NCBI GenBank assembly: GCA_965116875.1
Contig: OZ220733.1
Coordinates: 1,120,001 to 1,184,000 of the forward strand
Length of the DNA stretch: 64,000 nucleotides
Direction: 5' to 3'
From: Candidatus Latescibacterota bacterium
Lineage (GTDB): Bacteria > Latescibacterota > UBA2968 > GCA-2709665
Every line of letters starts with the position of its first letter. Position 1 is the first letter of the stretch. The notes beneath the pieces were generated by a model, which saw nothing but the letters and a program-made list of their open reading frames with translations, did not search any database and was not told the origin of the DNA. Below, in pieces: positions 23,429 to 61,885 of the stretch. The translations under genes and the position numbers were made by a program.

Positions 23429-23482
23429 TCGCTGTATGCTCGACGTCCGAACAAACAGATCACCGGTTCGCGGAGTAAGGCT

Positions 23483-25945: not shown

Positions 25946-26064
25946 CGGAAAGCCCGCGCGTGACAGGAACCGCATGGTATCGCTGTGAGAAACGGTACAA
26001 ATGGAGCGAATCCCGCTATGCCGGCACGTCGCCGTTTCGGGAGGGTTTTTCGTACGGGTAACCC

Positions 26065-27660: not shown

Positions 27661-27689
27661 GGAAACCGGCAATTCAGGAGATCTCTGCA

Positions 27690-28826: not shown

Positions 28827-28840
28827 CTCGCGCGTGACGG

Positions 28841-40416: not shown

Positions 40417-40454
40417 GCTTATTGTCAGCCCATAACCCACGGAGGAACCAAACG

Positions 40455-41300
40455 ATGTCCGAACGAGCCGACGCGCATATCCATCTGTTCGAGGGAGGCT
40501 ACCAGGATTCCTTTATAAAGCGGTTGAACCGGCCCGTCGACGAAGCCGTCGTCTACGCATCGCTGGCGAAGGACCACGGGGTGAGGGCCGCGTTGATCGT
40601 GGGGTACGCGGACGTTCCATGGGCGGCGGAGAATACCCGCTATCTCACGCAGATGGCGGCCGAATACGACTGGGTGTATCCCGCGGCCTATTTCGACGCC
40701 TCGGAAGCGCCGACAACAGACGAGTTGGCGCGATTGCAGACCCACGGTTTCGTGGGCGTGAGCTTTTACATTTTCGGTCCGGAACGCGTGGATGCCCTCC
40801 TCGGCATTTCGGACGAGGTCTGGGCCTGGCTGGCTTCCAGACGCTGGCTGGTGAGCGTGAATTCGAAGGGCGACGACTGGAACGCCTGGCAGGACGTCCT
40901 CGGGCGGCATCCGGAGTTGCGTCTCGTCGTGTCCCACCTGGGCCTGCCGCCAAGACAGGCGGAAGCGCCCGGCCCCGGGCAGGCCCGAACCGCGATGGCC
41001 AGCGTGCTGGCGCTGGCGGAATTTCCTCAAGCGCGGGTCAAGCTGAGCGGCTTCTACGCGCTGACCGATCCGGGACACGATTATCCGCACCGCGCGGCCT
41101 GGCCGTACGTGGAAGTTCTGCTGGATGCCTACGGCGTTGAGCGGCTGCTGTGGGCGTCGGACTATTCGCCCTGCCTGGACTGTGTGACGTTTCCGCAGAC
41201 GTACGACCTGTTTTCGAAGATGCCGTTCCTCTCGGACGAGGACCGGACCCGCATCGAAGGCTCGAATCTTCTCACATTGCTGGAGGAGATCGAGCATTAA
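40455..41300 (+). CDS. Amidohydrolase_2 family protein (sugar lactonase-like)
   Basis: DAHIH, SHLGLP, VKLSG, RLLWASDYSP. Confidence 0.88.
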   Translation: MSERADAHIHLFEGGYQDSFIKRLNRPVDEAVVYASLAKDHGVRAALIVGYADVPWAAENTRYLTQMAAEYDWVYPAAYFDASEAPTTDELARLQTHGFVGVSFYIFGPERVDALLGISDEVWAWLASRRWLVSVNSKGDDWNAWQDVLGRHPELRLVVSHLGLPPRQAEAPGPGQARTAMASVLALAEFPQARVKLSGFYALTDPGHDYPHRAAWPYVEVLLDAYGVERLLWASDYSPCLDCVTFPQTYDLFSKMPFLSDEDRTRIEGSNLLTLLEEIEH

Positions 41301-41535
41301 CCATGATACGTAAATTTTCGTGGACGTTAATTCGAATATATGCAAGTTGATAAAGGCGATTAGACGGCGGATTACCAGGATTAACCGGGTCACTGGACGG
41401 GAACGGAAATATCATCCTTACGAACGACCTCGATACCCCGTTTGGCGCCGGTCCCTTCTGTGTCTTTTGTGCTTTTTGTGGCCAATTTGCCTGTTGTCAT
41501 TTTTCGAATCGAGGTTGAGACCGGCTTCGTTTCGC
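41298..41535 (+). repeat. Dispersed ~220-bp element, copy B, with a TTTTGTG 9-mer arm
   Basis: Colinear with 61300-61543; ends TAACCATGATACG / CGAATCGAGGTTGA form an imperfect inverted repeat. Confidence 0.85.
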
Positions 41536-41594
41536 GACAAAAAAGCTCACTGGTAACGCATTTGCATTCCGTGGTCTGCACCGGAGGGCCTGTA

Positions 41595-42587
41595 ATGGAA
41601 AAACTGGGCGTTGGGATTGTGGGCATCGGACACGCGGGACGGGAACATTTCAAGGCGTTTGACGAGAATCCAGATGCCGAAGTGCGGGCGGCCTGGGCGC
41701 CGAGCGTGCGCAGACTGGACCTGTTCCCCGGTTCCATGGACCTGTTTACTTCGACGTATGAGACGATGCTGGTACGCGACGATATCGACGTCATCTCTCT
41801 TTGCAGCCCCAACTACGCGCACGCGGATCAGGCGGTTGCGGCACTGGAAGCAGGCAAGCACGTGATCTGCGAGAAACCCCTGGCGACCACGCTGGAGGAC
41901 TGCGAACGGATCGTGCGGGCGGCCGACGCGCAGCCGGCGCTCAAGTTCATGGTGGGGCAGAGCGCGCGGTTCAATCCCATCTGCAAGACAATCAAACGCA
42001 TGTACGACGACGGAGAACTGGGGGAAGCCTTTTACGCCGAGGCGGACTATCTGCACAACATCGGGAAACGGATCAAGGACTGGTGGGTCGACGACCGGAA
42101 TCCGCACTTCGGCCTGATGGGGGGCGGCGTCCACCCCATCGATCTCCTGCGATGGATCGTTGGCGATATCGACGAAGTATTCGCCATTTCCAACCACAAG
42201 GTGCTCGCCGAATTTCCGCATGACGACGCATACCTGATGAATTTCAGATTCGAGAACGGTTGCATGGGCAAGATGGCCGCGTTTCTCGGATGCCAGCGTC
42301 CGTACGAACTGAATCTCGCCATATACGGCACAAGGGGCACGGCGATTAACGACAGGTTATACCTCAGCAAAGTCGAGGAACTGGAGGATTTCATCCGGCT
42401 GCCAATTACGATTCTCGCCGAGCACCCCACGTTCGGCGAAGAGATGGCGCATTTTGTGGACAGTATTCTGAACGACACGACGCCGATGATCGACGTGCGG
42501 GACGGGGCGAAATCCGCCGCCACCTGCATCGCGGGCGCGGAGTCCATCAGGACCGGCAGACCCGTCCGCGTGAGGAACTCGTTTTGA
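41595..42587 (+). CDS. Gfo/Idh/MocA family oxidoreductase
   Basis: GIVGIG, CEKPLA, GGVHPID. Confidence 0.92.
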   Translation: MEKLGVGIVGIGHAGREHFKAFDENPDAEVRAAWAPSVRRLDLFPGSMDLFTSTYETMLVRDDIDVISLCSPNYAHADQAVAALEAGKHVICEKPLATTLEDCERIVRAADAQPALKFMVGQSARFNPICKTIKRMYDDGELGEAFYAEADYLHNIGKRIKDWWVDDRNPHFGLMGGGVHPIDLLRWIVGDIDEVFAISNHKVLAEFPHDDAYLMNFRFENGCMGKMAAFLGCQRPYELNLAIYGTRGTAINDRLYLSKVEELEDFIRLPITILAEHPTFGEEMAHFVDSILNDTTPMIDVRDGAKSAATCIAGAESIRTGRPVRVRNSF

Positions 42588-42725: not shown

Positions 42726-43523
42726 ATGAAGCTATCGCTGTCCGGTCGGCTGGTTGAAATGACGAAACAGTCCTATGCGATGACGGTGGAAGAATTCCTG
42801 CAGCTTACGGTCAGCGCGGGTTATGAGGGCGTGCACCTGAGGGACGGACAGATCGATCACCTCATCAGGGAGGAACGATTCGATGAGGTTGAAGCCCTCT
42901 ATGCCGGACACGGGCTGGGCTGCAGCATGCTCTGGGGACGGCTGGATTCGGATTCGTTCGACGCGGACCTGACCCGGAAGAAACTGGCGCTGCTGCCGCG
43001 TGTCGGGCTGGACCAGTTGATGATCGGATATCCAACGGACGTCGATTTGATCCGTGAATGGTGCGACCTGGCCGCACGGCAGGAAATCACCCTTGTCATC
43101 GCCTGTCATTTCAACAGCATGTTCGAGGATATCCACCGTGCCCGGGATTTCATCGTAAAGGTGGACCGCCCCAACCTCGGGCTGAACGTCGATCCGTTGA
43201 ATATCCACATGGCGGAACAGGACTACGGGCTGGCCACCCTGGAACAGGTGAGAGATCTGCTGTGCATCGTCAACGTACAGGGCGGCGTGCTGCACCAGGG
43301 CGAGCAGACCATTCGCCGGTACTACCTGAAGACCACTCCGACGTTTCGAAGGGCATATCTTTGCGACGAGGACCATCTCGACGTCCCCGGGTTCATATCG
43401 AATCTGAAAACCATCGGATATCAAGGGTACGTCAACGTCCTCGAACCGTATTCGAGGGACGAAGACCTCTCTCGGGTGGCGTCGGCAACGGCGCGCATGC
43501 TCCGGGGTTACATCGATGGATGA
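42726..43523 (+). CDS. Sugar-phosphate isomerase/epimerase (AP-endonuclease 2 TIM barrel)
   Basis: GYEGVHLR, NLGLNVDPLN, GYQGYVNVLE. Confidence 0.75.
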   Translation: MKLSLSGRLVEMTKQSYAMTVEEFLQLTVSAGYEGVHLRDGQIDHLIREERFDEVEALYAGHGLGCSMLWGRLDSDSFDADLTRKKLALLPRVGLDQLMIGYPTDVDLIREWCDLAARQEITLVIACHFNSMFEDIHRARDFIVKVDRPNLGLNVDPLNIHMAEQDYGLATLEQVRDLLCIVNVQGGVLHQGEQTIRRYYLKTTPTFRRAYLCDEDHLDVPGFISNLKTIGYQGYVNVLEPYSRDEDLSRVASATARMLRGYIDG

Positions 43524-43576
43524 CCACGGGTAATGGCGCCCGGACTTGGTTCCATGCCCGGATGTCGTGTGTGAAG

Positions 43577-43600
43577 GTGGGGCAGACATTCCTGTCTGCC
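43577..43600 (+). repeat. GTGG-type REP (second copy inverted at 53047-53070)
   Basis: GTGG-GGCAGACA-TTCC-TGTCTGCC; both copies are preceded by TGAAG. Confidence 0.75.
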
Positions 43601-43703
43601 GGTCTCCATACGCGTCCTGGCAGGCAGCAAAACAGCGCCCGGGTCGGGGTCCGCACGTTCCTTCGATCATTATAAATTCATCTAATCGCGGTATGAAAAA
43701 TAC

Positions 43704-43754
43704 TTGACAGCGTTAATTTTCGTGCATTAATTGCGATATGTAGTAATCCTACTA
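43704..43754 (+). promoter_or_regulatory. Probable sigma70 promoter with a downstream palindromic operator
   Basis: TTGACA at 43704, AT-rich TGCATTAAT -10 region, and TAGTA-ATCC-TACTA inverted repeat at 43741-43754. Confidence 0.45.
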
Positions 43755-43928
43755 TTGAGAATCGACCGGTACAAATTCCAACCTTTTGATCGAACACGTG
43801 CGCAGAGACAACGGACAACCACACCGCGAGGAGGTGATGATTCGACTGGATTGAGGGTGCGTTTTGCAAAAAGGCGCCGGAGTGTCCGGATGTTGCTCGT
43901 GACATCTGAATCATCAAGGAGGTTGAAT

Positions 43929-44645
43929 ATGCGTAACGGTGTGTTGGTGTGTATGGCGGCGGCGCTGCTGCTGCTTTCGGGGGGAACGGCCTATGGGGGC
44001 GGCGTGGCCGGAAGTTGGGGGCTCGGGACGTTCCTGGACTACAACCGGTCCATCTTCAAGCTGAAGGACTGGTATGAAACCGGCCGGGGGCAGGCCGGCG
44101 TGGTGTTCACCTACGTGATGAGTCCACGCACCAGCGTGGAGATGGAGTTTCACCGGTCCATCTTCGAGAACGGAGTACTGGAAGACACTCCGTTTACCTG
44201 GCCCATAGACGGCAGGGACTACAAGTCCCCCAATGCTGCGAGCGAGATGCGTATCAGCAGCTTTCTGGTGAACGCGGTGGTCAGACGTGGAGGCGGAGGC
44301 ATCCTGGCCAAGGAGAAGTATTCCACCTACGTGACCGTCGGCGCTGGCTTCTACGACTACAAGACGGACGTGAGCGGACTGATCTTTCCCGGTCAGCGTG
44401 AAGCGCCCCTCGACAAGGAACTGGTGATCGAGCCGTTCAGCGATTCGCGCACGGCGCTCGGCGCCAACGTGGGCCTGGGCGTGGAGGCGTTTGTGTTCGA
44501 CAACATTTCGCTGGACGTGCGCGCGCGGTACAACCTCCTGTTGGGCGAGTTGAGGCCGATGGAAGCGTGGGGCCTCGAGGGCCAGACGTTTCCGATGCAA
44601 TTCCTGAATGCGCGGGGAGGCATCCGGTTCTACTTCAAGAAATAA
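43929..44645 (+). CDS. Small outer-membrane beta-barrel protein (OmpA/OmpW-like)
   Basis: Signal peptide; YVTVGAGFY, GANVGLGVE, C-terminal GIRFYF. Confidence 0.8.
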   Translation: MRNGVLVCMAAALLLLSGGTAYGGGVAGSWGLGTFLDYNRSIFKLKDWYETGRGQAGVVFTYVMSPRTSVEMEFHRSIFENGVLEDTPFTWPIDGRDYKSPNAASEMRISSFLVNAVVRRGGGGILAKEKYSTYVTVGAGFYDYKTDVSGLIFPGQREAPLDKELVIEPFSDSRTALGANVGLGVEAFVFDNISLDVRARYNLLLGELRPMEAWGLEGQTFPMQFLNARGGIRFYFKK

Positions 44646-44724
44646 CAACGCAGGCGTGGTGGCATTTTTTAATTAGAGTTGAAATGACCTGAACGTGAAG
44701 CAGACGCCGCGAAAAGGAGGAACC

Positions 44725-47700
44725 ATGAGCAGGCTCAGGATTTTCACGGGCGCTGTGGTCGTCTTGTTTGCCTTGTTCTTTGCAGCCAGTGCGGTCATGG
44801 CCGCGACAACCGGCAAGATCGTCGGTCGCGTGACCGATGAGAAGGGGCAACCCCTGCCGGGGGCGAGTGTGGCGCTTGAGGGAGCCCGGCTGGGTGGAAC
44901 GACCGACGCTGACGGATTCTACGTGATCGTCTCCGTCACGCCCGGCCAGTACAAGCTGACGGCATCGATGGTGGGGTATCACTCGGTGGTCAAAGAGCAG
45001 GTGGGCGTACGGGTGGACTTCACCACAACGGTTGACTTCCAGCTTCGTGAAACCGAACTGGAACTGGAAGAGATGGTGGTGGTCGCCGAGAGACCGCCAG
45101 TGGATCCCGACAAGACGGACAGCCGTTACGTCGTGACCGCCGAGGAGATCGATCGAACGCCCATTCTGAGAAATGTCACCGAGGTCCTGGAGTTGGAGCC
45201 GGGCTATGCCGTTGACGGCAGCGGCGCCATCCGGGGCTGGGTGGCCAGCCACAACGTCGTCTACATCGACGGCGTCCCCGTTTCCGGCAGAGACGGGCGC
45301 GGCATCGGCGGCGGATGGGGCGACGGTGGCGAGAGACAGTGGTACGGCGTCAACCTGAAGGCCGTGCAGGAGGTCTCGGTCATCACGGGCGGAATGAACG
45401 CCGAGTACGGAAACGCGCAGGCAGGCGTGATCCAGATCGTAACGCGCGACGGCGGCGCACAATATCACGGCGAGGCGGAGTATCGTCTCACCCCTGCCGG
45501 CAAGAAACACTGGGGCGAGAATGTCTACGAGGCGCCGGAACTGCGTGGAAACGCGAAGTGGAACGATCCGGCGTGGACGTCCGAGGTGGACCCCGAAACG
45601 GGAAATCTCGTCCACCCGCGAACCAACTACACGGACTGGCGGGGCCACTACCTGGATGGGTTTCTGAGCGGTCCCCTGTTCGGGGAGGCGTCATTCTTCG
45701 CCAGCGCCCGGCACCTGCGTGACGCCGCCGTGCTTCCCGGGCCGTGGCGAACCCGGCCGCCGAACCTCCGGACCACGGCAAAGCTGACGGTCCCGGCGGG
45801 GTCGAACATGAAGCTGCGGATCGGATGGATGTACGACTTCTCCGAGAATGTCAACAACGGACGGCTGTCCCGGTACAGCTTTCCGAACGTCATCCGGGGA
45901 ACGGGACGCGACCTCTTTATTCCCGATGGATCGGTCGCGGGCGAGGAAAAACAGACGGACAACATGATCTATGGCGTTATTACCCATACTATCAGCCCCA
46001 GGACGTTTTACGAGGTAAGCGTGTCGCGCTACCGGAGCGCTACAGACACCAGCGGCGTGGGGAATAAGACGACGGCCGTCAGGACCGACAGCGAAGGGTA
46101 CTTCTACATCGGCCGGGAGGACGTCTGGGCATTCAAGGTCGGCGAGCAGAACCGTTTCAGCCTGAAGGCCGATCTCTCCAGCCAGATGACCCGCGGACAC
46201 TTCGCCAAGACCGGCTTCGAGTTCATGACGTTCGAGAACTGGTGGACGTGGACCGGCATGACGCCCGGCGACGCGAAACGGGATATCCGTTACATCGGGC
46301 AGCCCGAACCCGGCGAGGCCGTGACGCCCAGACAGTTCGGCGCGTACGTCCAGGACAAAATGGAGTTCGAGGGGCTGATCGTCAACGTCGGCCTGCGCTA
46401 CGACCGCCTGTGGGGTCAGGACGTTCAGTTGCTGCCGTCGTTCACGTCGGGGTGGTACAACACAATGGATACGTTCATCCAGGCGCCCACCGGGCCCATG
46501 CGGACCATACAGGGCTGGAGCCCCAGGCTGGGTATCTCACACCCCATCACGGCCAGGTCCAGCATGCATTTCTACTACGGCCGATACATGATGATCCCCT
46601 CCTTCCGGCACCAGTTCGGAAGCCATTGGGAGACGGCTTCCGGGCCGGACGGGATTCCCGGCGTCCCGTGGAGTCATTTCAACGCGAAAGACGAAAGCTA
46701 CGGCGCCAACGTCATCAGCCCGGTCTGGGACCACGGTCACCCCACGACCAGTTTTGAGGTGGGCACCGACTGGAACTTCGTAAGCGACTATGTCTTTTCT
46801 CTGGCGGCGTTCTACAAGAGCGGCCATCTTCAGAGCACAGGCATCTGGCACGACGCCGTCGATCCTGTCACGGGCAGGACGGGCGCCATCGGGGGCACGT
46901 ACGGTTCCGAACGCACGGAAGACGTCAAGGGGTTCGAGTTCAGCATGCGGAAGGGCTTCAGCAACTTTTTCGCCTTCCGCGCCGCTTTGAATCTGGAGTG
47001 GCTGGAAGCCATCCACTGGCTGGGCGACCCGGAGACGGTTGCCAGCGTCCTGGTCTATCCCGACCGGAGTTTCATCGCCAGCGGAAGGTATCACAAGGAA
47101 TGGCGCGTCGCGGGCGGCCGAAGGGAACCGGTCCCGCTTACGGCGGAGGAGATCAAAACGCTTGGCGACAAAGCGGAAGAAAACCTGCAAAAGGTCCGGG
47201 AAAACGTGAATGCCTTCAACGCCCGCGGCTCGGCGCCTCTCCAGCCTGCGTGGGAAGTCGAGGGCCTGACGGACGAAGCGCGGGAATGGCTTCAGGGCAT
47301 CTGGTTTCAGAAGTTCTGGTTCAGTACCGGCAATATCTTCACGCGCGGACGCCGCAGCCAGGGCAGCCTTCAGATGTTCTTCTCCTCCCCGCTCGACTAC
47401 GGTCCGGGCGCAAAGTACGCGGGCGCCACGCTGTTCGGCGGCATCAACGCGAACCTGATCTACCGGATCTACACGGGCAGCAAGTTCAATTACATCAAGC
47501 TGACCGGAGCCAACACGCCGGCAAGACGGCCCTTGCACACGGAAGCCGACCTGAACCTGCAGAAGCACTTCCGGTTCGGGAACGTGAACGCCGATGTGTT
47601 CGTGGAAGTGTTCAACCTGTTCAACCAGCAGGACGCCAGCAGCGTCACCGGAACCGACTACATGTGGTGGGGGCTCCAGCAGCCCAGGCCCAACGACGCG

Positions 47701-47790
47701 ACGTACCTTAATTACGGGGACGTTTCAGACCGTTCGCGCTATATAGGCAATCCCCGGATAACGCACATGGGAATCAGGTTGAGCTTCTGA
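44725..47790 (+). CDS. TonB-dependent receptor with N-terminal carboxypeptidase-regulatory-like domain
   Basis: TTGKIVGRVTD..G.PLPGA, plug motif GG.NAEYGNAQAGVI.IVT, YVQDKMEF..N.GLRYD, SPRLGISHP, FNLFN, C-terminal Phe. Confidence 0.92.
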   Translation: MSRLRIFTGAVVVLFALFFAASAVMAATTGKIVGRVTDEKGQPLPGASVALEGARLGGTTDADGFYVIVSVTPGQYKLTASMVGYHSVVKEQVGVRVDFTTTVDFQLRETELELEEMVVVAERPPVDPDKTDSRYVVTAEEIDRTPILRNVTEVLELEPGYAVDGSGAIRGWVASHNVVYIDGVPVSGRDGRGIGGGWGDGGERQWYGVNLKAVQEVSVITGGMNAEYGNAQAGVIQIVTRDGGAQYHGEAEYRLTPAGKKHWGENVYEAPELRGNAKWNDPAWTSEVDPETGNLVHPRTNYTDWRGHYLDGFLSGPLFGEASFFASARHLRDAAVLPGPWRTRPPNLRTTAKLTVPAGSNMKLRIGWMYDFSENVNNGRLSRYSFPNVIRGTGRDLFIPDGSVAGEEKQTDNMIYGVITHTISPRTFYEVSVSRYRSATDTSGVGNKTTAVRTDSEGYFYIGREDVWAFKVGEQNRFSLKADLSSQMTRGHFAKTGFEFMTFENWWTWTGMTPGDAKRDIRYIGQPEPGEAVTPRQFGAYVQDKMEFEGLIVNVGLRYDRLWGQDVQLLPSFTSGWYNTMDTFIQAPTGPMRTIQGWSPRLGISHPITARSSMHFYYGRYMMIPSFRHQFGSHWETASGPDGIPGVPWSHFNAKDESYGANVISPVWDHGHPTTSFEVGTDWNFVSDYVFSLAAFYKSGHLQSTGIWHDAVDPVTGRTGAIGGTYGSERTEDVKGFEFSMRKGFSNFFAFRAALNLEWLEAIHWLGDPETVASVLVYPDRSFIASGRYHKEWRVAGGRREPVPLTAEEIKTLGDKAEENLQKVRENVNAFNARGSAPLQPAWEVEGLTDEAREWLQGIWFQKFWFSTGNIFTRGRRSQGSLQMFFSSPLDYGPGAKYAGATLFGGINANLIYRIYTGSKFNYIKLTGANTPARRPLHTEADLNLQKHFRFGNVNADVFVEVFNLFNQQDASSVTGTDYMWWGLQQPRPNDATYLNYGDVSDRSRYIGNPRITHMGIRLSF

Positions 47791-47856
47791 CGTGAGTGAG
47801 CCCCTCCGGAGAAGGAGGGACCGAACTCATTGGTCATCTTTGAGGAGGTCAAGGAA

Positions 47857-50127
47857 ATGAACAGGAATATCGTAAGCGGGATTGCGCTCCTGGCTCTGGT
47901 GTTCAGCACCGCGGTACACGCGGAACTCCGGGTCCAGTCCCGTGCGAAAGTATGGGACATCTACTGGAACTCGGGCACCCAGGGTGTGCGCGCCGCCACG
48001 CCCATGAGCTGGTACCGGCCCGTCGGTATGGCGTATCCAGGCAGGTTCTGGGTGCAGTACCCACAGGAATTCATAGACTACTGGGGCACCCGGACCTGGG
48101 GCGTCCGGTCCGAATGGGTGGTTTACTACAACGAATTGTGCGGCACCATGCCCGGCTGGAACCAGTTCATCGCGACACGGGTGGGCGGCGATTACCACGT
48201 TTCCGAATCCAAGGCCACGCTTGAATCGGAGGACGTGGTCCCCATGGCCTACGATCCTTCGCAGGGGCCGGAGAGCAATATCGGCTACCGGAAGGTATCT
48301 CCCCTGGGTCCCGATATGGCCAACTGGTGGCCGGGCCAGGCCGCGCCGGGTCCCGTTTCGCCGGTGGAGATCCACAACTACCGGTACAGCGAATATATGG
48401 AGGCCGACAAGGACAACTTTCCGGAGAGCATTATCGTCAGCAAATGGACCACGAAGAACGGCATCACCGTAACCAAGAAGTCTTACGCATGGAGCTATCC
48501 GGACTTCGACGACTTCCAGATTATGGAATATACGTTCGAGAACACCGGTGATTCGGACGGTGACGGCGTGGCGGACCTCGGCGGCGGCGGGCTGCAGTTG
48601 AACGATACGTTCCTGATCTTCTCCACCCGCTTTTACGCCTCCCAGTGCGGCCAGGCCCACTATGCGGGGGATTCATTCTTCCGGCGTACCATTCCGATCG
48701 CGCTGGACGATTGGTACAAATATACGGAAGCTGCCAACTTCGACGGTCCGGGCGATGCGTTGGGTCTCAAGATGTGGTATGCTTTTGATGCGGACAATCC
48801 CGACCTGCCTGGAAACGACATCGGCAAACCCTATAGTGAGGAACGCGCCAACCAGAGCTGGCACCAGTGCTGTCTCCAGCAGACGAAAATCGAGGGGGAG
48901 ATGGGGGCCTTCCAGTACATCGGCGCCGCCCCGCTGGCGTACACGCCCGGATCGGTCAACGATGCCTCGACCTTTACCTTCGACACCGGCGGAGATGCAA
49001 GCTTTATTGCGCCCCGGGTGGCCGACCAGCCTCATACCGTCAAGTGGTGGGACTACCGGGACCGTACCGATTTCTCGGAACCCGGTTCCGAGAACATGAG
49101 TTCCGAGCAGATCTACAACGAACTCACGAGTCCCGCGCCATTCATCATGGACAATCCCACCACGATTGACGGGCTCGTCGCTTCCTTCGCCTATGGGCCG
49201 TACGACCTGGCCCCCGGAGACAAGGTGAGAATCGTCTACGCCCTGGTGGCGGCCGCGCCGGTGGAGGAGAATATCTATGGTTGGGCCAAGCAGAGCCGGC
49301 AGGAAGATATGCTGTCGGACAAGCCCATGAACAACCTGCTCAAACACCACAAGGCCGCGACCGACGCCTTCAGGTGGAACTACGACTTGCCCGATCCCCC
49401 ACCTGACGTCAAGACGGAAACCACCGCGTCGGTCGACGGATTCAACCTTGTCAAGTGGACCGACGCCGGCGACGACGCGACCGACCCGGACTACACGGGC
49501 GCCGAGGCGCAGGATATCGTGGGCTACCGGGTCTACCGCTCGGACTACAAGATCGACGACTGGAAGCTGATGGCCGATGTCCCGCTGAAGGATCCGGAGT
49601 ACTACAGCGGCGGCACCTACCAGGTTGAAGACCGGAAGTCCGTTGCGGGTTTCGAGTACACCTACCGCGTGGCCGCCTACGACTCGGGCCACGATGACTG
49701 GAATGGAACCGGGATGGCCATTCCGTCGATGGAGGGCGGGAACAGCGCGCCCGAGCAGTGGGCGGGCGGCGTGATGACCAGCGTTCCCTTCGTGCCGGCC
49801 AACGCCTCCGCGGACCAGCTGGCGCGGAACGTGATCGTCGTCCCCAATCCGCACAAGGTGGACGGCGCCCACAACTATCCTTCGGCGGGGTTGATCCGGT
49901 TTACGAATATCCCGCAAAAGTGCACGATCCGGATCTACACCGTGGCGGGCGAGCTTGCCGCCCTGATTGAGCACGAAGACCCCGCCCGGGGCGAAGCCGG
50001 GTGGAGCCAGATCCCCCATTCGCGCGGCGGGGACGTGCCCGCCGGCGTCTACTACTGGATCGTCGAGTCCCAGATGCCGGGGAGCGCGGGCCAGACGCAA
50101 CGGGGCACGTTGATGATCATCAAGTAG
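47857..50127 (+). CDS. Secreted protein with FN3-like domain and T9SS-type C-terminal sorting domain
   Basis: Signal peptide; GYRVYRS..YTYRVAAYD; tail VVPNP..IRFTNIP..IRIYT..GE..W..GVY..G.LMIIK. Confidence 0.8.
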   Translation: MNRNIVSGIALLALVFSTAVHAELRVQSRAKVWDIYWNSGTQGVRAATPMSWYRPVGMAYPGRFWVQYPQEFIDYWGTRTWGVRSEWVVYYNELCGTMPGWNQFIATRVGGDYHVSESKATLESEDVVPMAYDPSQGPESNIGYRKVSPLGPDMANWWPGQAAPGPVSPVEIHNYRYSEYMEADKDNFPESIIVSKWTTKNGITVTKKSYAWSYPDFDDFQIMEYTFENTGDSDGDGVADLGGGGLQLNDTFLIFSTRFYASQCGQAHYAGDSFFRRTIPIALDDWYKYTEAANFDGPGDALGLKMWYAFDADNPDLPGNDIGKPYSEERANQSWHQCCLQQTKIEGEMGAFQYIGAAPLAYTPGSVNDASTFTFDTGGDASFIAPRVADQPHTVKWWDYRDRTDFSEPGSENMSSEQIYNELTSPAPFIMDNPTTIDGLVASFAYGPYDLAPGDKVRIVYALVAAAPVEENIYGWAKQSRQEDMLSDKPMNNLLKHHKAATDAFRWNYDLPDPPPDVKTETTASVDGFNLVKWTDAGDDATDPDYTGAEAQDIVGYRVYRSDYKIDDWKLMADVPLKDPEYYSGGTYQVEDRKSVAGFEYTYRVAAYDSGHDDWNGTGMAIPSMEGGNSAPEQWAGGVMTSVPFVPANASADQLARNVIVVPNPHKVDGAHNYPSAGLIRFTNIPQKCTIRIYTVAGELAALIEHEDPARGEAGWSQIPHSRGGDVPAGVYYWIVESQMPGSAGQTQRGTLMIIK

Positions 50128-50155
50128 GGGCAGATCTCTATTTCTGCTCGGTTAG

Positions 50156-50317
50156 GAAGTTGTCTTAAAATTACCGGTGAGTTCCCGAGCGCGAGCGAAA
50201 AAGCGGCGGTCAAGGCAGGAAAATCCGCCCATATTTGTCTATACGGGTGGATTTGACCAACGCCGACCGGCGCTTTTGCAGCCGCGCGAAGACCGCTGGG
50301 AATTTTAAGACAGCTTC
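50156..50317 (-). mobile_element. 162-bp MITE, copy 2
   Basis: Reverse complement of 18763-18924 with the same TIRs. Confidence 0.88.
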
Positions 50318-50351
50318 TCAGGTCCATACTGAAACTCAAGGAGATGACGCG

Positions 50352-51305
50352 ATGAAACGGACGTTGTGGATCGGACTGACAGCGGCGGTGATCTGCGCCC
50401 TGCTCTACCCCCGGGGGGCGGATGCCCAGGACCAGCGGCGGTTGTCGCGGATGGTCCTCCCTGTTCTGAAGATCGATCACGGGGCGCGAATGGCCGGTAT
50501 GGGCGGCGCGTTCGTGGCCGTATCGGACAATATAGATGCCATCTTTTCGAATCCGGCGGGTCTCACGCATCTCGAACGTGCCGCGTTTACGCTCGGATAC
50601 ACCCGGTGGCTGATGAACGACCACATCCTTACGGGTGGCATGGCTTTCAACACGGCGCACGGCGTTGTGGGTGTCAACGTGGTTACCTTCAGCCCCCACG
50701 AGTTCGAAGAGACGACCATTTTCCAGCCCACCGGGACGGGACGGTATCCTGATATGGGCGATCTCTCACTGGGCGTGGTCTACGCCAGGAAACTGACGGA
50801 CAAACTCTCCGTGGGCTCGATGTTCCGCTGGACGCAGCAGACGCTGGATACAGACCGCCTGAACGCGTGGGACGTGGGCGTATCCACGTTTTTCTACACC
50901 GGTTTCAGGAGCCTGCGTCTGGGCATGACCTTCGAGAACATGGGCAAGGACGTCAAGGTGATTGACGACGTCCGAAAGATGCCGGTTGCCTTCAGCACGG
51001 CCGCGGCAATGGAAATTGTCGGCGCCACCGGCGACCCGACTTATATCACGGTCACCTTTGAAAACACGTACGCCACGGATTTCGCCGACCCGCAGTACCG
51101 TTTCGGCGGCGAACTCTGGCTTCAGAACAACTTTGCCCTCCGGGCGGGCTATAAGGCGAACTTCGACGAAGAGTCCTGGACGCTCGGGGCGGGCCTGAAA
51201 TTCTCGATGCCGAACGGACGGATCGTGCAGGCCGACGTCGCGTACAGCGATTTCGGCACGTACCTGGATGCCCCGCTGCGGTTCACGCTCAGCGGCGCGT
51301 TCTGA
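50352..51305 (+). CDS. PorV/PorQ family outer-membrane barrel
   Basis: LKI..GAR.AGMGGAF.AV.D...IF.NPAGL, LRAGY, D.AY..FG, C-terminal Phe. Confidence 0.88.
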   Translation: MKRTLWIGLTAAVICALLYPRGADAQDQRRLSRMVLPVLKIDHGARMAGMGGAFVAVSDNIDAIFSNPAGLTHLERAAFTLGYTRWLMNDHILTGGMAFNTAHGVVGVNVVTFSPHEFEETTIFQPTGTGRYPDMGDLSLGVVYARKLTDKLSVGSMFRWTQQTLDTDRLNAWDVGVSTFFYTGFRSLRLGMTFENMGKDVKVIDDVRKMPVAFSTAAAMEIVGATGDPTYITVTFENTYATDFADPQYRFGGELWLQNNFALRAGYKANFDEESWTLGAGLKFSMPNGRIVQADVAYSDFGTYLDAPLRFTLSGAF

Positions 51306-51325: not shown

Positions 51326-51366
51326 AAAAAAGAAATGGCGGTCCTCAGGGATTGCCATTTCTTTTT
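51326..51366. terminator. Bidirectional intrinsic terminator
   Basis: AAAAAGAAATGGC...GCCATTTCTTTTT hairpin with a T-tract on both strands. Confidence 0.8.
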
Positions 51367-51410
51367 ATCCTCTTCCCACACCTGCCCAAAATCGCCTTTT
51401 CCAAATAAAC

Positions 51411-51554: not shown

Positions 51555-51715
51555 GGAGCGAGGGCATCCTGCCCTCGGACTTCGCGTCACCTACCCCTTT
51601 TGCGTCGAGGGCAGGATGCCCTCGCTCCAGGGAACGCCAACGGCACAGGTCCCTTTTGTGTTTCTGTGCTTTTTGTGGCCAAATTGACGGTGATCTATTT
51701 TTGAATTGAGGTTGA
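51555..51715. repeat. Composite repeat: REP doublet copy 2 + 9-mer arm and right end of the ~220-bp element
   Basis: 51555-51628 matches the arms of 3934-4081; 51642-51715 matches 41446-41518. Confidence 0.8.
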
Positions 51716-51763: not shown

Positions 51764-52987
51764 GTGGGCCGATTTAAAAAGATCTGTCTGACGTGCGATG
51801 CGCAACAGGGCGACGCGACCTTGAATTGCGGTGCCTGCGCCGGACCCCTGGGGTTTCAATACCGCTATCACGACGTTTCATGGGACGACCGGTTCGAAGG
51901 TACCATGTGGCGCTACTGGCCCCTGCTTCCGGTAGACCCTCCCGATGGAGCGGTGATTCTGGGCGAAGGCGGTACCCCGCTGTTGTCCGCACGGAGCTTT
52001 CGCGGGCAGCGGGTCTATCTGAAGGACGAGACCCGCAACCCCACCGGATCCCACAAGGACCGTTCGCTCTCGGTCGCGATCACGCACGCGAAAGCCATTG
52101 GCGCGGACGTTTCCGTCATCGTATCCACGGGCAGCGCGGGCATCTCGAACGCCGCTCTGGCTGCCAGGGCCGGAATGCGCAGTGCGGTGGTCATGACGGA
52201 AGGAACGCCGCCGGAGCGCCTCTACCCCATGTACGGCCTGGGCGCGGTGCTTGTCGAGGTGAAGGCCCCCATCGACCCGATCGTACAGGGGGTGATTGAC
52301 GTCTGTCGTGAACAGGGTCTCTATCTGAGTACCACCAGCCGGAGTTCCAATCCGTACCAAGCCGAGGGGAACAAGACCATCGCCTTCGAGATTGTGGAGA
52401 AGCTTGGCAGAGCGCCGGACTGGGTGGTGGTTCCCGTGGGCGGCGGCGGTACGGTCTCGGGGGTCTGGCGGGGATTCCTGGACTGCCGGACGCTCGGACT
52501 CATCGACTCCGTTCCCAGGATGATCGGCGTGGTACCCGCGGACTACAACGCCCTGGAGGTGGCCTTCGAACGCGGATTGAGGCGATGGGAAGACGTGCTG
52601 ACGTTGCCCTATGACAACCTGCCGCCCTCAATTCTGGTGAAACTCGCCCACAGCTACCCCCCCGACGGCATGGAAGCCATAGAGACCATACGTTCGTCGA
52701 ATGGGTTCTTTGTTTCCGTCACGGACGAGGAAGCCCTTTCGGCCCAGGCAGCCTGCGGCCGGCGGGAAGGTCTGTTCGTGGAGCCCTCAACGGGCGCCTG
52801 CCTCGCGGGCACAACCCGTCTTCTGGATTCGGGACGTGTCGATCCCGAGGATATCGTCGTCGCCATCGTCAGCGGCTCCGGCTATCGTGAAACCGCGTGT
52901 ACCATGGCCGAGCGTCCACTCGCGACACGGGCGATTGCCATAGAGGAACTATCCGATACCCTTTCGGGTTTCGCGGGCGCCGGGTGA
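51764..52987 (+). CDS. Threonine synthase-like fold-type II PLP enzyme
   Basis: N-terminal CxxC..CxxC, LGEGGTPL, NPTGSHKDR, EGNKT, VPVGGGG, EPS. Confidence 0.85.
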   Translation: MGRFKKICLTCDAQQGDATLNCGACAGPLGFQYRYHDVSWDDRFEGTMWRYWPLLPVDPPDGAVILGEGGTPLLSARSFRGQRVYLKDETRNPTGSHKDRSLSVAITHAKAIGADVSVIVSTGSAGISNAALAARAGMRSAVVMTEGTPPERLYPMYGLGAVLVEVKAPIDPIVQGVIDVCREQGLYLSTTSRSSNPYQAEGNKTIAFEIVEKLGRAPDWVVVPVGGGGTVSGVWRGFLDCRTLGLIDSVPRMIGVVPADYNALEVAFERGLRRWEDVLTLPYDNLPPSILVKLAHSYPPDGMEAIETIRSSNGFFVSVTDEEALSAQAACGRREGLFVEPSTGACLAGTTRLLDSGRVDPEDIVVAIVSGSGYRETACTMAERPLATRAIAIEELSDTLSGFAGAG

Positions 52988-53118
52988 ACGGTCCGGGGGC
53001 CCGGGCCATTCTTCCGTCTGCATTCCAGGAGAAGGACGAAAAGAACGGCAGACAGGCGTGTCTGCCCCACCTTCAAACACTTCCTCATCGGCTCGACCCT
53101 GACAAAGGAGCTGATTCC

Positions 53119-54141
53119 ATGTCCCTTCATCTCGCACAATGGCGTCGTCGCGAAGAACCTGTACTGTCCGCGCTGACCACCCGCGAGGACTGGTGCCGGG
53201 TTGAACTCTACAATCCGACAGTTATCCGCGTGGCGGACAGGTACATGATGTGGTACGTCGGCAACAGTTCCGCCACCCGTACCGACGATTCGGTCGTGGG
53301 CTTCGCCGAATCGGACGACGGCATCCACTGGAACGAGCACCCGGACAACCCCATCCTCACCCGCGATGATCTGCCCGCCTGCGACGCCTGGCAGACGCCC
53401 CACGTGATCTTCGACGCGGACGAGGGCCTGTTCAGGATGTGGTTCATCATGTCGACCGTGGTGCGGGGCGGTCCGACCTGGCTCGTCAGCTTCACCCAGG
53501 AACTGGGCTACGCCACCAGCCGCGACGGGCTGAAATGGGACGTTCATCCCGAGCCCATCTACCCCAGCGGCCGGAGGCCGTGCGTGATCAGGGACGGTCC
53601 GGGCGCCTACCGGATGTGGATGAACTCATCGCCGACGCCCGACGGGAGCTTCGACGATCTGGTGCGGCATATCTATCGATTCGAATCCGCCGACGGCATC
53701 GAATGGACGCGGGACCCTGAACCCGCGGTGAGCTTCAACGAGAAGCTCCGGGGCACGGTCTATCCGTTCGTCATGCGCGACGGCGGCGGATACATCATGT
53801 GGTACGGAGCCTGGCCCGCCAACGGCGAGGTCGTGATCGACACGGGGTCCGAATCGCCGCTGGTCCGCCCCGTTTTCGAGATCTACTGCTCCACGTCGTC
53901 CGACGGACTCGTCTGGACCCACCACCACGACACGCCCGCCCTGCCCGCGACGCGGGATCCCAACCACTACGACGGGCGGTATACTTCCACGCCGTGCGTC
54001 GTGGACGGTGGGGACCGCTATCTGATGTATTATTCGGCCCGCGACTGGGGTACCCTCTACAGGACCGGCGCCGACACGCTTGGCATCGACAGAGCCGGAA
54101 TTTACCGCCACGTCGGCGTGGCCGAGTGCGGCAGGACTTGA
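53119..54141 (+). CDS. Five-bladed beta-propeller glycosidase-like protein (GH43/GH130-type fold)
   Basis: Repeated MWY...G.A.S.DG..W blades (Asp-box-like); no signal peptide. Confidence 0.75.
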   Translation: MSLHLAQWRRREEPVLSALTTREDWCRVELYNPTVIRVADRYMMWYVGNSSATRTDDSVVGFAESDDGIHWNEHPDNPILTRDDLPACDAWQTPHVIFDADEGLFRMWFIMSTVVRGGPTWLVSFTQELGYATSRDGLKWDVHPEPIYPSGRRPCVIRDGPGAYRMWMNSSPTPDGSFDDLVRHIYRFESADGIEWTRDPEPAVSFNEKLRGTVYPFVMRDGGGYIMWYGAWPANGEVVIDTGSESPLVRPVFEIYCSTSSDGLVWTHHHDTPALPATRDPNHYDGRYTSTPCVVDGGDRYLMYYSARDWGTLYRTGADTLGIDRAGIYRHVGVAECGRT

Positions 54142-54167: not shown

Positions 54168-56162
54168 GTGGAAAACGCTCGAGCACAGGACTCGCAACAA
54201 CGCGCGCAATCGGAGAGCCTGCCGAAACCTTCGGAAGACGGTCTGACCCTTCGCGCATTCCTGATCGGGCTGGGTCTCTGCGCGTTCATGGGCGTCGCGT
54301 TGACCTACAACCGGATGGTCGTCCAGGGTCCCTTCATGGGCAATTACCATATGGACCGGGGCGTGCTGTTCGTTTTCTTTGTGCTCGTACTGGTGGTCAA
54401 TCCCCTGGCGGGAGTCCTGAAGCGCCGCTTCTCACTGGGGCGGGGCGAATTGCTGGCCATCTACGTCATGTTGATGTTTCTGATGCCGTCATGGAAGATG
54501 ACCAAGGCCCTGCTGGGTTTCATGACGGGCGTCACCTACTATGCCTCGCCGGAAATGCGGCACCTGGAAGCCGTGTTGCCCAATGCCCTCCCATGGCTGT
54601 CGATCCTGGACACGGAAACGGTGCGGGGGTTGTACGACGGCCTTCCTGCGGGCGACCCGGTACCCTGGTGGTCGTGGGTGGTTCCCCTGTGGAGCTGGGG
54701 ATCGTTCCTGGTCGTGCTTTACGTCGTGCTCGTCTGCCTGGCGATTCTCATGAGAAAGCAGTGGGAGGAGCACGAGCGCTTCGCGTTTCCGATCATGCAG
54801 GTGCCGCTGGAGATGAGCATGATAGAGGCGCGAAGGGTGGGGCCCCTGTTCCGCAGCAGGATGATGTGGGGGGGATTCGCCGTACCGTTTCTGATCGGAT
54901 TGTTGAACGGGCTTCAGAGGTACTACTATTCGCTTCCGCGTATTCAGCTGCGAACGACTCTCTGGATCTTCCGACGGGCGATTCCCTTGCATATCGGCCT
55001 GCATTTCGCGATCCTCGGGTACTCGTATTTCGTGAATACGGACGTGAGTCTGAGCATCTGGCTGTTCAACGTCATCGCGAAGTGCATCAGCGGGATTCTG
55101 GCCATCGTCGGGGCGGAGACATACGGGGTCTCGGGGGTCGTAGGCCGGCACAGCTCCCAGGGATCCGAGTTCCTGGCGATGATGGGTATGGGGTACATGC
55201 TCGGCCTGGCGGGCTACAGTCTGTGGATCGCGCGGGACCACCTGCGGGAGGTGTGGGCGAGGGCCATGGGCCGCCCGTCGCGCCTGGACGATTCGGAGGA
55301 GGTCATCCCCTATCGGTCCGCGGTTGCCGGGATCGTTGCGGGCACACTCTATCTCGGATGCTGGCTATACCAGGCGGGCATCGCTCCCCATCTCGTCCTG
55401 CTGCTGGGCTTTTTCAGTTTTGTCGTCTTTCTGGTGCTCGCCCGCATCGTGAGCGAGACCGGATATTCCGTAACCTATTCCCCGCTGAATCCGTCTGAGT
55501 TCGTGGTGTGCGCCGTGGGCTCCGCTGCGTTCAGCCCCACGGGGCTGACGTCTCTCGGCGTCAGCTTCGCCTGGACGATGACCCGGTTGAATACGCTCAT
55601 GCCGAGGGCCTCGGGCGCGCTGCGACTCGCACGGGAGATCGGACGCAAGCGTGGGCTGGTGCTGGCGATGGGCGCCGCGCTGGCCGCGGGCCTGATCGCC
55701 GCGAGCTATACCACGCTTCAGCTGGGATACGAACACGGCGGCCGCAACCTGGACTACTGGTTCAGGGACGTGAACGACTGCGCGCTGCCGTTCGACGAAT
55801 ACATCGGGCGCAGGCTGCTTTCCCCCTCGCCCATCTTCTACCCCGGTTTCCTGTATACCGGTCTGGGTATCGCCGTCGTCGTGATGATGATGGCGCTCCG
55901 CTCCCGGCTGCCGTCGTGGCCGCTGCACCCTATTGCGCTGCCCGTGAGTACGATCGCCTATACGCACAACTACTTTTTCAGCGTGTTTCTCGCCTGGGGA
56001 ATCAAGTCGCTCGTCCTGCGGTTCGGAGGCGCCAACCTGTACCGGTTGACCCGGCTGTTCTTTATCGGCATTATTCTCGGGGAGGCGGTCTGCCTCGGGA
56101 CGTGGATCGTCATCGACAGCATCACCGGTAAAGTGGGCGGGATCTGGATATTGCAACCGTAG
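54168..56162 (+). CDS. DUF6785-like / OPT-related polytopic membrane transporter
   Basis: LRAFLIG, VPW..W..PL..W, RKQW...ER..FP, WPLHP, K..VLRFGG..LY...FFIG.ILGE. Confidence 0.75.
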   Translation: MENARAQDSQQRAQSESLPKPSEDGLTLRAFLIGLGLCAFMGVALTYNRMVVQGPFMGNYHMDRGVLFVFFVLVLVVNPLAGVLKRRFSLGRGELLAIYVMLMFLMPSWKMTKALLGFMTGVTYYASPEMRHLEAVLPNALPWLSILDTETVRGLYDGLPAGDPVPWWSWVVPLWSWGSFLVVLYVVLVCLAILMRKQWEEHERFAFPIMQVPLEMSMIEARRVGPLFRSRMMWGGFAVPFLIGLLNGLQRYYYSLPRIQLRTTLWIFRRAIPLHIGLHFAILGYSYFVNTDVSLSIWLFNVIAKCISGILAIVGAETYGVSGVVGRHSSQGSEFLAMMGMGYMLGLAGYSLWIARDHLREVWARAMGRPSRLDDSEEVIPYRSAVAGIVAGTLYLGCWLYQAGIAPHLVLLLGFFSFVVFLVLARIVSETGYSVTYSPLNPSEFVVCAVGSAAFSPTGLTSLGVSFAWTMTRLNTLMPRASGALRLAREIGRKRGLVLAMGAALAAGLIAASYTTLQLGYEHGGRNLDYWFRDVNDCALPFDEYIGRRLLSPSPIFYPGFLYTGLGIAVVVMMMALRSRLPSWPLHPIALPVSTIAYTHNYFFSVFLAWGIKSLVLRFGGANLYRLTRLFFIGIILGEAVCLGTWIVIDSITGKVGGIWILQP

Positions 56163-61302: not shown

Positions 61303-61543
61303 CCATGATTCGTTGTTTTCCGGGGACGTTAGTTCGTATATATGCAGGTAGATAATGGCGATTAAACTGCAGATTACCAGGATACACCAGGTCGCTGGAC
61401 GTTAACGGAAATATCATCCTTATGGACGACCTCGATACCCCGTTTGGCACCGGTCCTTTTTGTGTCTTTTGTGCCTTTTGTGGCCAATTTGACTGTCGTC
61501 TTTTTTCGCATTGAGGGTAAGCAGCCTGATGCGGCTTCGTTTC
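61300..61543 (+). repeat. Dispersed ~220-bp element, copy C
   Basis: Colinear with 41298-41535; starts at the TAA stop of the upstream gene. Confidence 0.85.
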
Positions 61544-61558
61544 CTCAGCCGCAACCAA

Positions 61559-61885
61559 TCATGTGACGCCGGCCAGCCGCGCGCTCACCAGCCGATTCAG
61601 GCTTACGCCCTGTTCCGCCGCTTCGATGACCAGGGCTCGGTGCGATTCCGGCGGCAGACGCACCAGGAATTTGCCGCTGTACGCGCGATCCGCCAGTGGC
61701 GCCGGTATTGGCTCGCCAGTGGCGCGCATGTCGTCCACGGATTCCCGAACGAGCCGCTGGATGCCGGACAATGCCTCATCGGGTGACGTCGCGAGCCAGC
61801 TCAGCGACGGGAATTCCGCACAGAGACCCACGTGTTCGCTGTCTTCCGCGGACCACGTGATCCGGTAGGTGTAATGGTCGGTCAT
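61559..61885 (-). CDS. hicB: HicB family antitoxin
   Basis: YRITWS.ED..HVG...EFPSL, YSGKF.VR.PPE.HR.L...A...GVSLN (RHH). Confidence 0.9.
   Translation of the reverse strand: MTDHYTYRITWSAEDSEHVGLCAEFPSLSWLATSPDEALSGIQRLVRESVDDMRATGEPIPAPLADRAYSGKFLVRLPPESHRALVIEAAEQGVSLNRLVSARLAGVT

Follow-up and report, generated by a model that had tools for sequence, protein, structure and literature searches.

Four co-oriented genes, A to D, occupy positions 43929-51305 on the forward strand of the 64,000-nucleotide stretch analysed here (hereafter the window), which derives from contig OZ220733.1 of a Candidatus Latescibacterota bacterium, and they are considered here as a candidate nutrient uptake module of the outer membrane. 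In order, they encode a small outer-membrane β-barrel protein of 238 amino acids (A, 43929-44645), a TonB-dependent receptor (TBDR) of 1021 amino acids (B, 44725-47790), an exported protein of 756 amino acids from an unnamed family (C, 47857-50127) and an outer-membrane barrel of the PorV/PorQ family with 317 amino acids (D, 50352-51305). A was assigned from a match to OMP_b-brl (PF13505) together with an N-terminal hydrophobic segment, B from its CarboxypepD_reg and Plug domains, C from a structure model in which a type IX secretion system (T9SS)-type C-terminal domain (CTD) is recognized by its fold, and D from the NF033709 model. A previous interpretation made from the letters alone (the sequence-only reading) described four co-oriented exported genes; the open reading frames (ORFs) were found where it placed them and one N-terminal hydrophobic segment is present in each of A, B and C, yet the leader of D is apparent only by eye, as its N-terminus MKRTLWIGLTAAVICALL resembles a signal peptide and falls below the hydrophobicity threshold. 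No lipobox is evident in A-D on inspection by eye. The ORF of B opens with a GTG at 44695, that of C with a TTG at 47830 and that of D with a TTG at 50235, and A starts with an ATG 7 nucleotides (nt) 3' of an AAGGAGG.

B is composed of a signal peptide, a CarboxypepD_reg domain (PF13620, 72 bits, residues 32-108), a plug (45.2 bits, above the cut-off of the model, residues 131-234) and a large divergent barrel. Between the first two domains lies the sequence EEMVVVAERPP (residues 115-125, nt 45067-45099), which we take to be the TonB box, judged by eye against the known consensus; in 29 sequences, V119, A121 and P124 of this EExVVVAERPP motif ahead of the plug are invariant. The Plug domain was found in 23 of the 29 relatives of B, and the PF00593 barrel in one of them (E 2.3e-17) and in B', the receptor of a divergent locus described below (L075; E 1.3e-28), not in the B of the window. 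The profile of B retrieves plug domains of siderophore receptors (E ~1e-15) as well as the SusC homologue 8aa4_A (positions 7-482, E 5.5e-10). Against the SusC/RagA model TIGR04056, B scores 59.9 bits versus a cut-off of 368.25, and the match covers model positions 2-208 of 981 only. Judged from these comparisons, B appears to have a SusC-style architecture while lying outside the SusC/RagA family. No SusD-family match was found among the window ORFs scanned or the 134 ORFs that flank the module in 13 related loci, which agrees with the earlier statement that a SusD-like gene is missing. The match of A to OMP_b-brl is just above the cut-off (29.6 versus 28.7 bits).

C belongs to no Pfam family, and NCBIfam gives a single, weak match, to the 90 final positions of the PorZ model (NF052228; E 0.001, 17.6 bits versus a cut-off of 260), confined to residues 650-747. 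A word-index search returned 55 relatives, named 'hypothetical protein' and once 'fibronectin type III domain-containing protein', with 0 precomputed Pfam domains among them. In a HMMER search of 1.84 billion cluster representatives, the family comprises 375 members at E ≤ 1e-30, 2383 at E ≤ 1e-10 and 5689 at E ≤ 1e-3, the weaker tiers of which certainly take in proteins that share only the fibronectin type III (FN3) or CTD parts; many matches of 640-750 amino acids align solely at profile positions ~190-754. The AlphaFold2 model of C (mean predicted local distance difference test score, pLDDT, 87.8; predicted template modelling score, pTM, 0.88) shows a signal peptide (residues 1-23), a large, mostly β region (residues 24-515, nt 47926-49401) with a helix at 489-506, an FN3-like domain (residues 516-612, nt 49402-49692) and the CTD (residues 645-756, nt 49789-50124). 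Given the pTM of 0.88 for the whole protein, the model has the CTD as an integral domain of C. A fold search of the PDB with all of C gave no global match (TMq ≤ 0.23), the matches being FN3 tandems and the N-terminal sandwiches of GH94 and GH116. Among Atlas look-alikes of residues 24-515, the commonest phyla are Zixibacteria, Fidelibacterota and Gemmatimonadota, which serve as leads only.

When the last 112 residues of C are modelled alone, from 31 sequences, they form a seven-stranded β-sandwich (pLDDT 87.7) whose best PDB match is PorZ (5m11; E 3.7e-6, TMq 0.66, 24% identity over 107 columns). The next matches are NucA (8glk_D), RemA (8gl6_D) and RemZ (8gl8_D), all from SprA-PorV complexes, followed by PorU (6za2) and mirolase (8qb1). 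Across 42 members of the C family, the PorZ model is matched, in its CTD, by nine (best E 1.2e-7), CHU_C by five (best E 1.2e-4; the C of the window is not among these), and Por_Secre_tail (PF18962; E 0.0071) and FlgD_ig by one each. The modelled fold identifies the end of C as a divergent CTD of the T9SS type, nearest to that of PorZ, and in this respect the sequence-only reading was right.

PorV-family barrels are known as shuttles and anchors of the T9SS. D matches the PorV/PorQ family model NF033709 with 154.3 bits (cut-off 90, residues 35-314), and scores 60.1 bits against PorV proper (NF033710, cut-off 250) and 57.4 bits against PorQ proper (NF033711, cut-off 220). No PorP/SprF model appears among its NCBIfam matches at E ≤ 0.1, and the BamG model gives 19 bits (cut-off 250). 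At E 1.3e-21, the profile of the D family retrieves PorV of Flavobacterium johnsoniae (6h3i_F, with six further entries), and it gives no other credible match. Sequence comparison places D on a separate branch of the PorV/PorQ family, and the PorV homology proposed for it earlier is upheld.

The sequence-only reading further proposed that C is held by its own PorV paralogue. For a complex model, residues 27-317 of D were combined with the 112-residue CTD, with an alignment of 31 rows for each, in three runs and three controls. An ipSAE of 0.88 was obtained in all three runs, compared to 0.00 for the best control, with at least 81% contact agreement between runs and a partner pLDDT of at least 75. 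Of the solved complexes used as a benchmark, 116/157 reach the mark applied to such models, as do 2/215 mismatched pairs, and these counts are approximate for user-supplied alignments. The contact residues of the CTD include the conserved stretches VVPNP, IRIY..AGE, GVYY.IVES and GTLMIIK. The complex model places the CTD of C on D, its predicted cognate barrel, a result that may reflect likeness to solved PorV-CTD complexes.

The genomic distribution of the four genes was followed through the relatives of C, which were collected from one genome per GTDB species in 292 stretches; the best 80 were returned, and all locus counts given here refer to those 80. The closest relatives, 94-99% identical, come from metagenome-assembled genomes (MAGs) labelled Candidatus Latescibacterota. 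Complete chromosomes with modules at 97-98% identity include OZ242180.1, OZ242358.1 and OZ241917.1. Comparison of the four window proteins with all ORFs of the 80 loci by phmmer revealed the same gene order as in the window: B lies immediately upstream of C in 80/80 loci and D immediately downstream in 78/80, which is 78/78 of those with room, the two misses (L001 and L071) being loci where the sequence ends 158 and 39 nt past C. Hidden Markov models (HMMs) of the families detected 87 ORFs with this type of CTD, 83 of them with both partners; three of the four exceptions are cut by the end of a locus or contig, and the fourth is an 18-bit match. At L051:9698-12177, the C gene is broken up, with overlapping ORFs of 368 and 73 bits, through a frameshift or an assembly error; the copy may be a decaying one.

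A is less constant. It lies upstream of B in 59/80 loci, four loci have no room for it, and it is missing in 17/76 with room, mainly in a paralogue group that is ~55% identical to the C of the window. The small outer-membrane protein is an optional accessory, so its membership of the module, as proposed before, stands for most loci and not as an obligate one. In one paralogue group, A lies 450-1800 nt upstream with an extra gene intervening; at L054:5941-6609, a 223-residue gene of this position, between A and B, gives Temptin_C, EF-hand/dockerin-like and weak cytochrome-c-like matches.

More divergent triads are also present. In L075 (5289-12585), a TBDR with PF00593 is followed by C', a protein of 1068 amino acids with no family whose likeness to C is limited to the PorZ-like CTD (E 2.5e-5), and by a PorV/PorQ-family protein D' (167 bits). 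L078-L080 likewise have a further divergent triad, located upstream of the focal module. What stays constant is therefore the receptor, the CTD and the barrel, and the middle protein can vary in its N-terminal region.

Up to six modules occur per genome, and 75 complete modules from 34 named genomes, together with that of the window (76 modules, 35 genomes), allow their histories to be compared. Compared as matrices, the pairwise distances of B, C and D are correlated with r 0.977-0.979. For the 71 pairs of paralogues that lie within one genome, r is 0.90-0.93, which species history does not explain because the paired modules share a genome. Furthermore, when the three proteins are each partitioned into clusters at distances of 35% and 50%, the partitions agree (adjusted Rand index 0.95-1.0), and in 73/76 modules the nearest relative in another genome falls into the same group for all three proteins. 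B, C and D have therefore been duplicated and inherited as a unit. Two of the checks suggested for this locus, on gene order and on co-phylogeny, came out in favour of a module; this co-diversification shows linkage and common history, not contact.

With respect to taxonomic range, Latescibacterota is the label of most of the 80 loci; the others are a single KSB1 locus and some from MAGs that bear the label Gemmatimonadota or Gemmatimonas. The MAGs RHO1_bin_28, RHO2_bin_5 and RHO3_bin_7 are labelled Gemmatimonadota, yet their modules are 97% identical to those of Latescibacterota-labelled MAGs and of the window; such conflicts concern L010, L012, L014, L015, L018, L033, L056, L060 and L065. 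The label Gemmatimonadota is therefore no evidence here of spread to another phylum. The suggestion that similar gene trios occur in other lineages of the Fibrobacterota-Chlorobiota-Bacteroidota (FCB) group is only weakly borne out.

The surroundings of the modules are informative about their likely role. A homologue of the DUF6785/DUF6784 protein encoded downstream of D in the window (54168-56162, forward strand, 664 amino acids; PF20581 E 7e-108, PF20580 E 8.4e-25), a polytopic membrane protein with at least eight hydrophobic segments, lies within 10 kb in 61/80 loci, in 57 of these downstream and on the same strand. Such proteins, of ~660 amino acids, recur beside the triads across paralogue groups, and 9 of 13 representative loci that cover all paralogue groups hold one. 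The flanks of these 13 loci also encode GntR or LacI regulators, a TonB_C protein, peptidases, amidohydrolases, S-methyltransferases and PcRGLX-like and GH127-like proteins; GFO/IDH/MocA, PhyH and GH130-like genes are found beside the modules too. The setting resembles a polysaccharide utilization locus (PUL) and follows the pattern of substrate-specific uptake-and-catabolism loci. This pattern therefore favours import through B and disfavours a role of C and D as secretion machinery. No mention of DUF6785/DUF6784 was found in the literature searched, and these proteins are candidates for a new family of inner-membrane permeases tied to TonB-dependent uptake.

Indirect evidence for a T9SS in this lineage comes from a related genome. 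At L014:15606-16412, the sorting domain of a 269-residue cohesin protein is of the canonical type A (TIGR04183, 35 bits, cut-off 23), and the same MAG is the source of L010, which is orthologous to the module of the window at 97% identity. An ORF of the size of SprA (at least 1400 amino acids) was sought in the window and the related loci, and only the cohesin protein of L067 has this size. This KSB1 locus (L067:14128-22015) encodes a protein of 2249 amino acids with six cohesin stretches and a PorU-like CTD, with a PorV-like gene next to it and no TBDR. Dockerin-like proteins are also encoded in the window, and these sequences hint at cohesin-dockerin surface assemblies that might be exported by a T9SS. 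The available part of one survey lists several FCB phyla as possible holders of the T9SS, and Latescibacterota are not named there (PMC11285876); in the available part of the Latescibacteria genome paper, only vitamin B12 and iron import is predicted for plug-domain proteins (PMC4454575). No description of a T9SS in Latescibacterota was found in the literature searched, most subscription journals and supplements lying outside that search.

Taken together, the reading we favour, with a probability slightly above one half (about 0.55), is that of a TonB-powered uptake module whose surface partner C is delivered by the T9SS and tethered by the cognate PorQ-like barrel D, with a DUF6785/DUF6784 permease in the inner membrane. 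Such a module would follow the SusC scheme of receptor and surface partner, put together here from T9SS components. B would be the energized channel, with its N-terminal extension, TonB box, plug and large barrel. C would be exported by Sec and then through the T9SS, and its CTD would remain uncleaved on the extracellular face of D, as the PorZ CTD does on PorQ. The β region and the FN3 domain of C would thus be tethered at the surface beside B, where they may capture the substrate or present it to the receptor; relative to B, C could be a true lid, which the sequence-only reading proposed as an alternative to SusD, or a neighbouring binding protein. The DUF6785/DUF6784 protein would then move the substrate through the inner membrane to the catabolic enzymes encoded alongside, and A would be an optional accessory small barrel. 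The domain identities, the strict B-C-D synteny, the co-diversification of the three genes and the genomic context in which this scheme is set are direct observations, the binding of the CTD to D is modelled, and from there the scheme extends to what we infer: the dependence of C on the T9SS, its retention at the surface, its cooperation with B and the role of the DUF6785/DUF6784 protein. A more ambitious form of the proposal, in which FCB bacteria outside the Bacteroidota that have no SusD would build a receptor-plus-lid by way of the T9SS, with the PorQ-like barrel docked on B, an uncleaved CTD, an interchangeable lid and the DUF6785/DUF6784 permease, is tentative and in its entirety rather doubtful.

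Several results weigh against the favoured reading. PorV-CTD complexes have already been solved (8gl6, 8glk), and the ipSAE of 0.88 may for this reason reflect likeness to them and not binding. The predicted interface of D is no more conserved than the rest of the protein (0.62 versus 0.62, p 0.50), and the enrichment at the CTD interface is small (0.66 versus 0.56, p 0.02). The C of the window has no TIGR04183 or PF18962 match at E ≤ 0.1 and fails the curated thresholds, and the CTD profile gives 0 matches to PDB sequences at E ≤ 1. With no global PDB match, the fold of C gives no clue to a ligand; it is all-β, unlike SusD, and an Atlas search with residues 24-515 returned unnamed clusters only (scores 0.92-0.93). 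SprA, PorKLMN and PorU were found neither in the window nor among the ORFs scanned, the whole genome not having been searched for them. In addition, the enzymes encoded nearby do not form classic sets of CAZymes.

The best-surviving alternative, unlikely in our view and still to be taken seriously, is that C is a T9SS-secreted surface enzyme or a glycan or peptide binder that is parked on D and merely co-regulated with B. C would then act upstream of uptake, like the surface glycan-binding proteins and surface hydrolases of Bacteroidota loci, and no complex or lid would be formed. What is known of the C-D pair, namely the CTD fold, the complex model and the likeness to PorV, serves this explanation equally well, and the N-terminal region of C is weakly similar to the β-sandwiches of GH94, GH116 and a polysaccharide lyase (TMq ~0.2). 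The KSB1 locus, where a PorV-like gene follows the cohesin protein with the PorU-like CTD and no receptor is adjacent, demonstrates that CTD-barrel pairs can therefore exist without a TBDR. However, every ORF with a CTD of the type found in C that has room for it is directly preceded by a TBDR, and the co-diversification of B with C and D is as tight as that between C and D, which is more than one would expect from mere co-regulation of separable parts.

Transport in the opposite direction appears improbable. Oar, the Myxococcus receptor needed for secretion of the protease PopC, has a CarboxypepD_reg extension and a plug, an architecture shared by B with its ~1000 residues, and B might work outward and export C across the outer membrane, with D as the anchor and without any T9SS. 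A requirement of a TonB-dependent transporter for protein secretion has been reported (available part of PMC6434023). On the other hand, the inner-membrane protein, catabolic enzymes and regulators of the loci fit import, the CTD of C has the fold of a T9SS signal, and a canonical type A CTD protein is encoded in the genome of a near-identical relative.

More improbable still is a role of D as a channel of the FadL type that passes a hydrophobic substrate, with a likeness to PorV that reflects only the shared fold and an ordinary immunoglobulin-like domain at the end of C. D does give weak matches to Toluene_X (PF03349; 20.7 bits versus a cut-off of 29.7, residues 50-83 only) and UPF0164 (23.1 bits), and PorV and BamG are described as FadL homologues in the available part of PMC12578637. 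Nevertheless, D scores 154.3 bits for the PorV/PorQ family, the sole solved relative found for it is PorV, the structural matches of the CTD are headed by T9SS CTDs and not by generic immunoglobulin domains, and the complex model of D with the CTD passes where the controls give zero. Finally, that C and D are components of a secretion machinery, analogues of the PorZ-PorQ attachment complex with no part in nutrient uptake, is hardly credible: PorZ is the closest structural match of the CTD and D' scores higher for PorQ than for PorV (106.4 versus 33.6 bits in L078, 88.6 versus 67.4 in L075), but the paralogous modules, up to six in a genome, each have their own TBDR and lie in catabolic loci, and C, far below the PorZ cut-off, matches PorZ in its CTD only and has no propeller domains in its model.

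As for the transcription of the module, the sequence-only reading placed it between a promoter/operator and a strong terminator, and only the latter could be substantiated. An intrinsic-terminator-like hairpin on the forward strand (51327-51371), with an 18-bp stem, a 4-nt loop and a T run, closes the A-D unit; its stem (51327-51366) begins 22 nt past the stop of D, has a free energy of -32.6 kcal/mol and a z-score of -4.69, and 0/200 shuffled sequences were as good. Within the unit, terminator-like sites occur at chance level (7 versus 6.9 expected). Upstream of A, the intergenic leader (43524-43928, forward strand) holds a TTGACA, a Shine-Dalgarno sequence and a mini-ORF and is a promoter/operator candidate only: a scan for σ70-type sites found three versus 2.3 expected, none of them on the forward strand upstream of A, and the TTGACA (43704-43709) is shared with L002, a 94% relative, the region being unalignable in more distant orthologues. 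The same leader contains, at 43826-43854, a strong GAGGAGG Shine-Dalgarno sequence and an ATG that opens a five-codon mini-ORF (43837-43854) ~90 nt upstream of A. Both the Shine-Dalgarno sequence and the start are retained in L002 and L005, and the start is ATA in L004; the mini-ORF may encode a leader peptide or be due to chance. Between the terminator of D and the gene that follows lies a perfect 23-nt inverted repeat (51555-51628) with 28 nt between its arms, each of which forms an 8-nt palindrome pair.

The module belongs to a long run of forward-strand genes. Upstream of A, these encode an Amidohydro_2 protein (40422-41300), a GFO/IDH/MocA protein (41442-42587) and, directly ahead of the leader of A, a xylose-isomerase-like TIM barrel (42726-43523). 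Downstream of D follow a pyridoxal-phosphate enzyme (51764-52987) and a weakly GH130-like protein (52897-54141), and, beyond the DUF6785/DUF6784 gene, two PhyH dioxygenases, a second GH130-like protein and a DUF4838/GH67N protein. Elsewhere in the window, a cluster of exported proteins (23339-31291, forward strand) comprises a TPR and GWxTD protein (868 amino acids), a dockerin-like protein (531), a protein of 378 amino acids and an FN3 protein (816). The third of these (27690-28826), located between the dockerin-like and FN3 proteins, was considered as a second PorV-like gene and rejected because it has 0 matches to NCBIfam, Pfam or the D-family HMM. Large TPR proteins directly adjoin the triads in three loci (L043, L054 and L077), and the triad of L036 has a GWxTD-domain protein beside it. 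On the reverse strand, a HicB-family antitoxin-like ORF (61559-61885; PF05534 E 6.2e-15) and an adjoining ORF of 100 amino acids (61256-61558) are likely to form a HicAB pair.

SusCD and RagAB of Bacteroidota are nearly the sole source of what is known about lidded TonB-dependent uptake, and their lid is a surface lipoprotein. The module shares with them a predicted TonB-dependent barrel of ~1000 amino acids with a CarboxypepD_reg-type extension and a plug, a dedicated gene for a putative surface partner immediately 3' of the receptor gene, and its multiplication within a genome into many paralogous loci, flanked by regulators, catabolic enzymes and a transporter of the inner membrane, which for the module is a putative one. 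It differs in that the partner C is all-β with an FN3 domain and a T9SS-type CTD instead of a helical SusD-like lipoprotein, and in its obligatory third gene for a PorV/PorQ-family barrel. In addition, B stays below the SusC/RagA cut-off with a match in its N-terminal fifth only, and the host phylum is Latescibacterota.

For the C-D pair, PorZ-PorQ and PorU-PorV of Porphyromonas gingivalis are the closest parallels. PorZ has two β-propeller domains, and C resembles it in the CTD only; moreover, the genes of C and D, unlike those of PorZ and PorQ, are adjacent, multi-copy, linked to a TBDR and set in a catabolic context. The CTD of C is structurally closest to that of PorZ, and D belongs to the same family of barrels as PorQ. 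Likewise, a CTD protein whose CTD is retained on a PorV-family barrel would be common to both cases: in the available part of PMC10202324, the PorZ CTD is described as retained and bound to PorQ, and cognate PorV-like barrels are proposed to shield CTDs from cleavage.

In the type B cargo systems exemplified by SprB/SprF of Flavobacterium johnsoniae, D would have a different counterpart, as it matches the PorV/PorQ family and not PorP/SprF, and CHU_C is touched by only 5/42 members of the C family. To our knowledge, no TBDR forms part of the SprB/SprF type. A cargo gene clustered with its own barrel gene is the shared feature: type B cargo genes cluster with genes for their own PorP/SprF barrels, which are proposed as surface anchors (available part of PMC10202324). 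A geometry similar to that proposed for D beside B, holding C, is found in BamG-BamH, where a 14-stranded FadL/PorV-like barrel packs on BamA and provides a platform for a surface-exposed protein (available part of PMC12578637). BamH, by contrast, is a lipoprotein and not a CTD protein, D is far below the BamG cut-off, and the complex serves outer-membrane protein assembly and not uptake. We know of no PorV-like barrel or CTD involved in the Oar/PopC case, and its direction of transport is opposite to that suggested by the context of the module. The likeness is that of a TBDR linked to a protein that ends outside the cell, since Oar, a TonB-dependent transporter, is needed for the secretion of PopC in Myxococcus xanthus (available part of PMC6434023).

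To conclude, the parts of the module are of known kinds, and both PorZ-PorQ and the type B cargo systems with their PorP/SprF barrels offer precedents for the C-D pair, as far as the accessible sources describe them, just as BamG-BamH does for a FadL-like barrel that holds a surface protein next to a second barrel. No description of a unit of TBDR, CTD protein and PorV-like barrel was found in the literature searched, in keeping with the earlier suggestion of an undescribed system; apparently new, within that literature, are the obligatory triad with a TBDR, its multiplication into PUL-like loci and the link to DUF6785/DUF6784. If the proposal is correct, the triad would show how nutrients can be captured without SusD in a large uncultured phylum, and it would provide the first functional handles on three unannotated families, the C family, this branch of PorV/PorQ and DUF6785/DUF6784. 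It would also add a new role, structural and non-secretory, to the PorV/PorQ-family barrels, and would represent a second, independent solution, with many substrate specificities, to the problem solved by SusCD.

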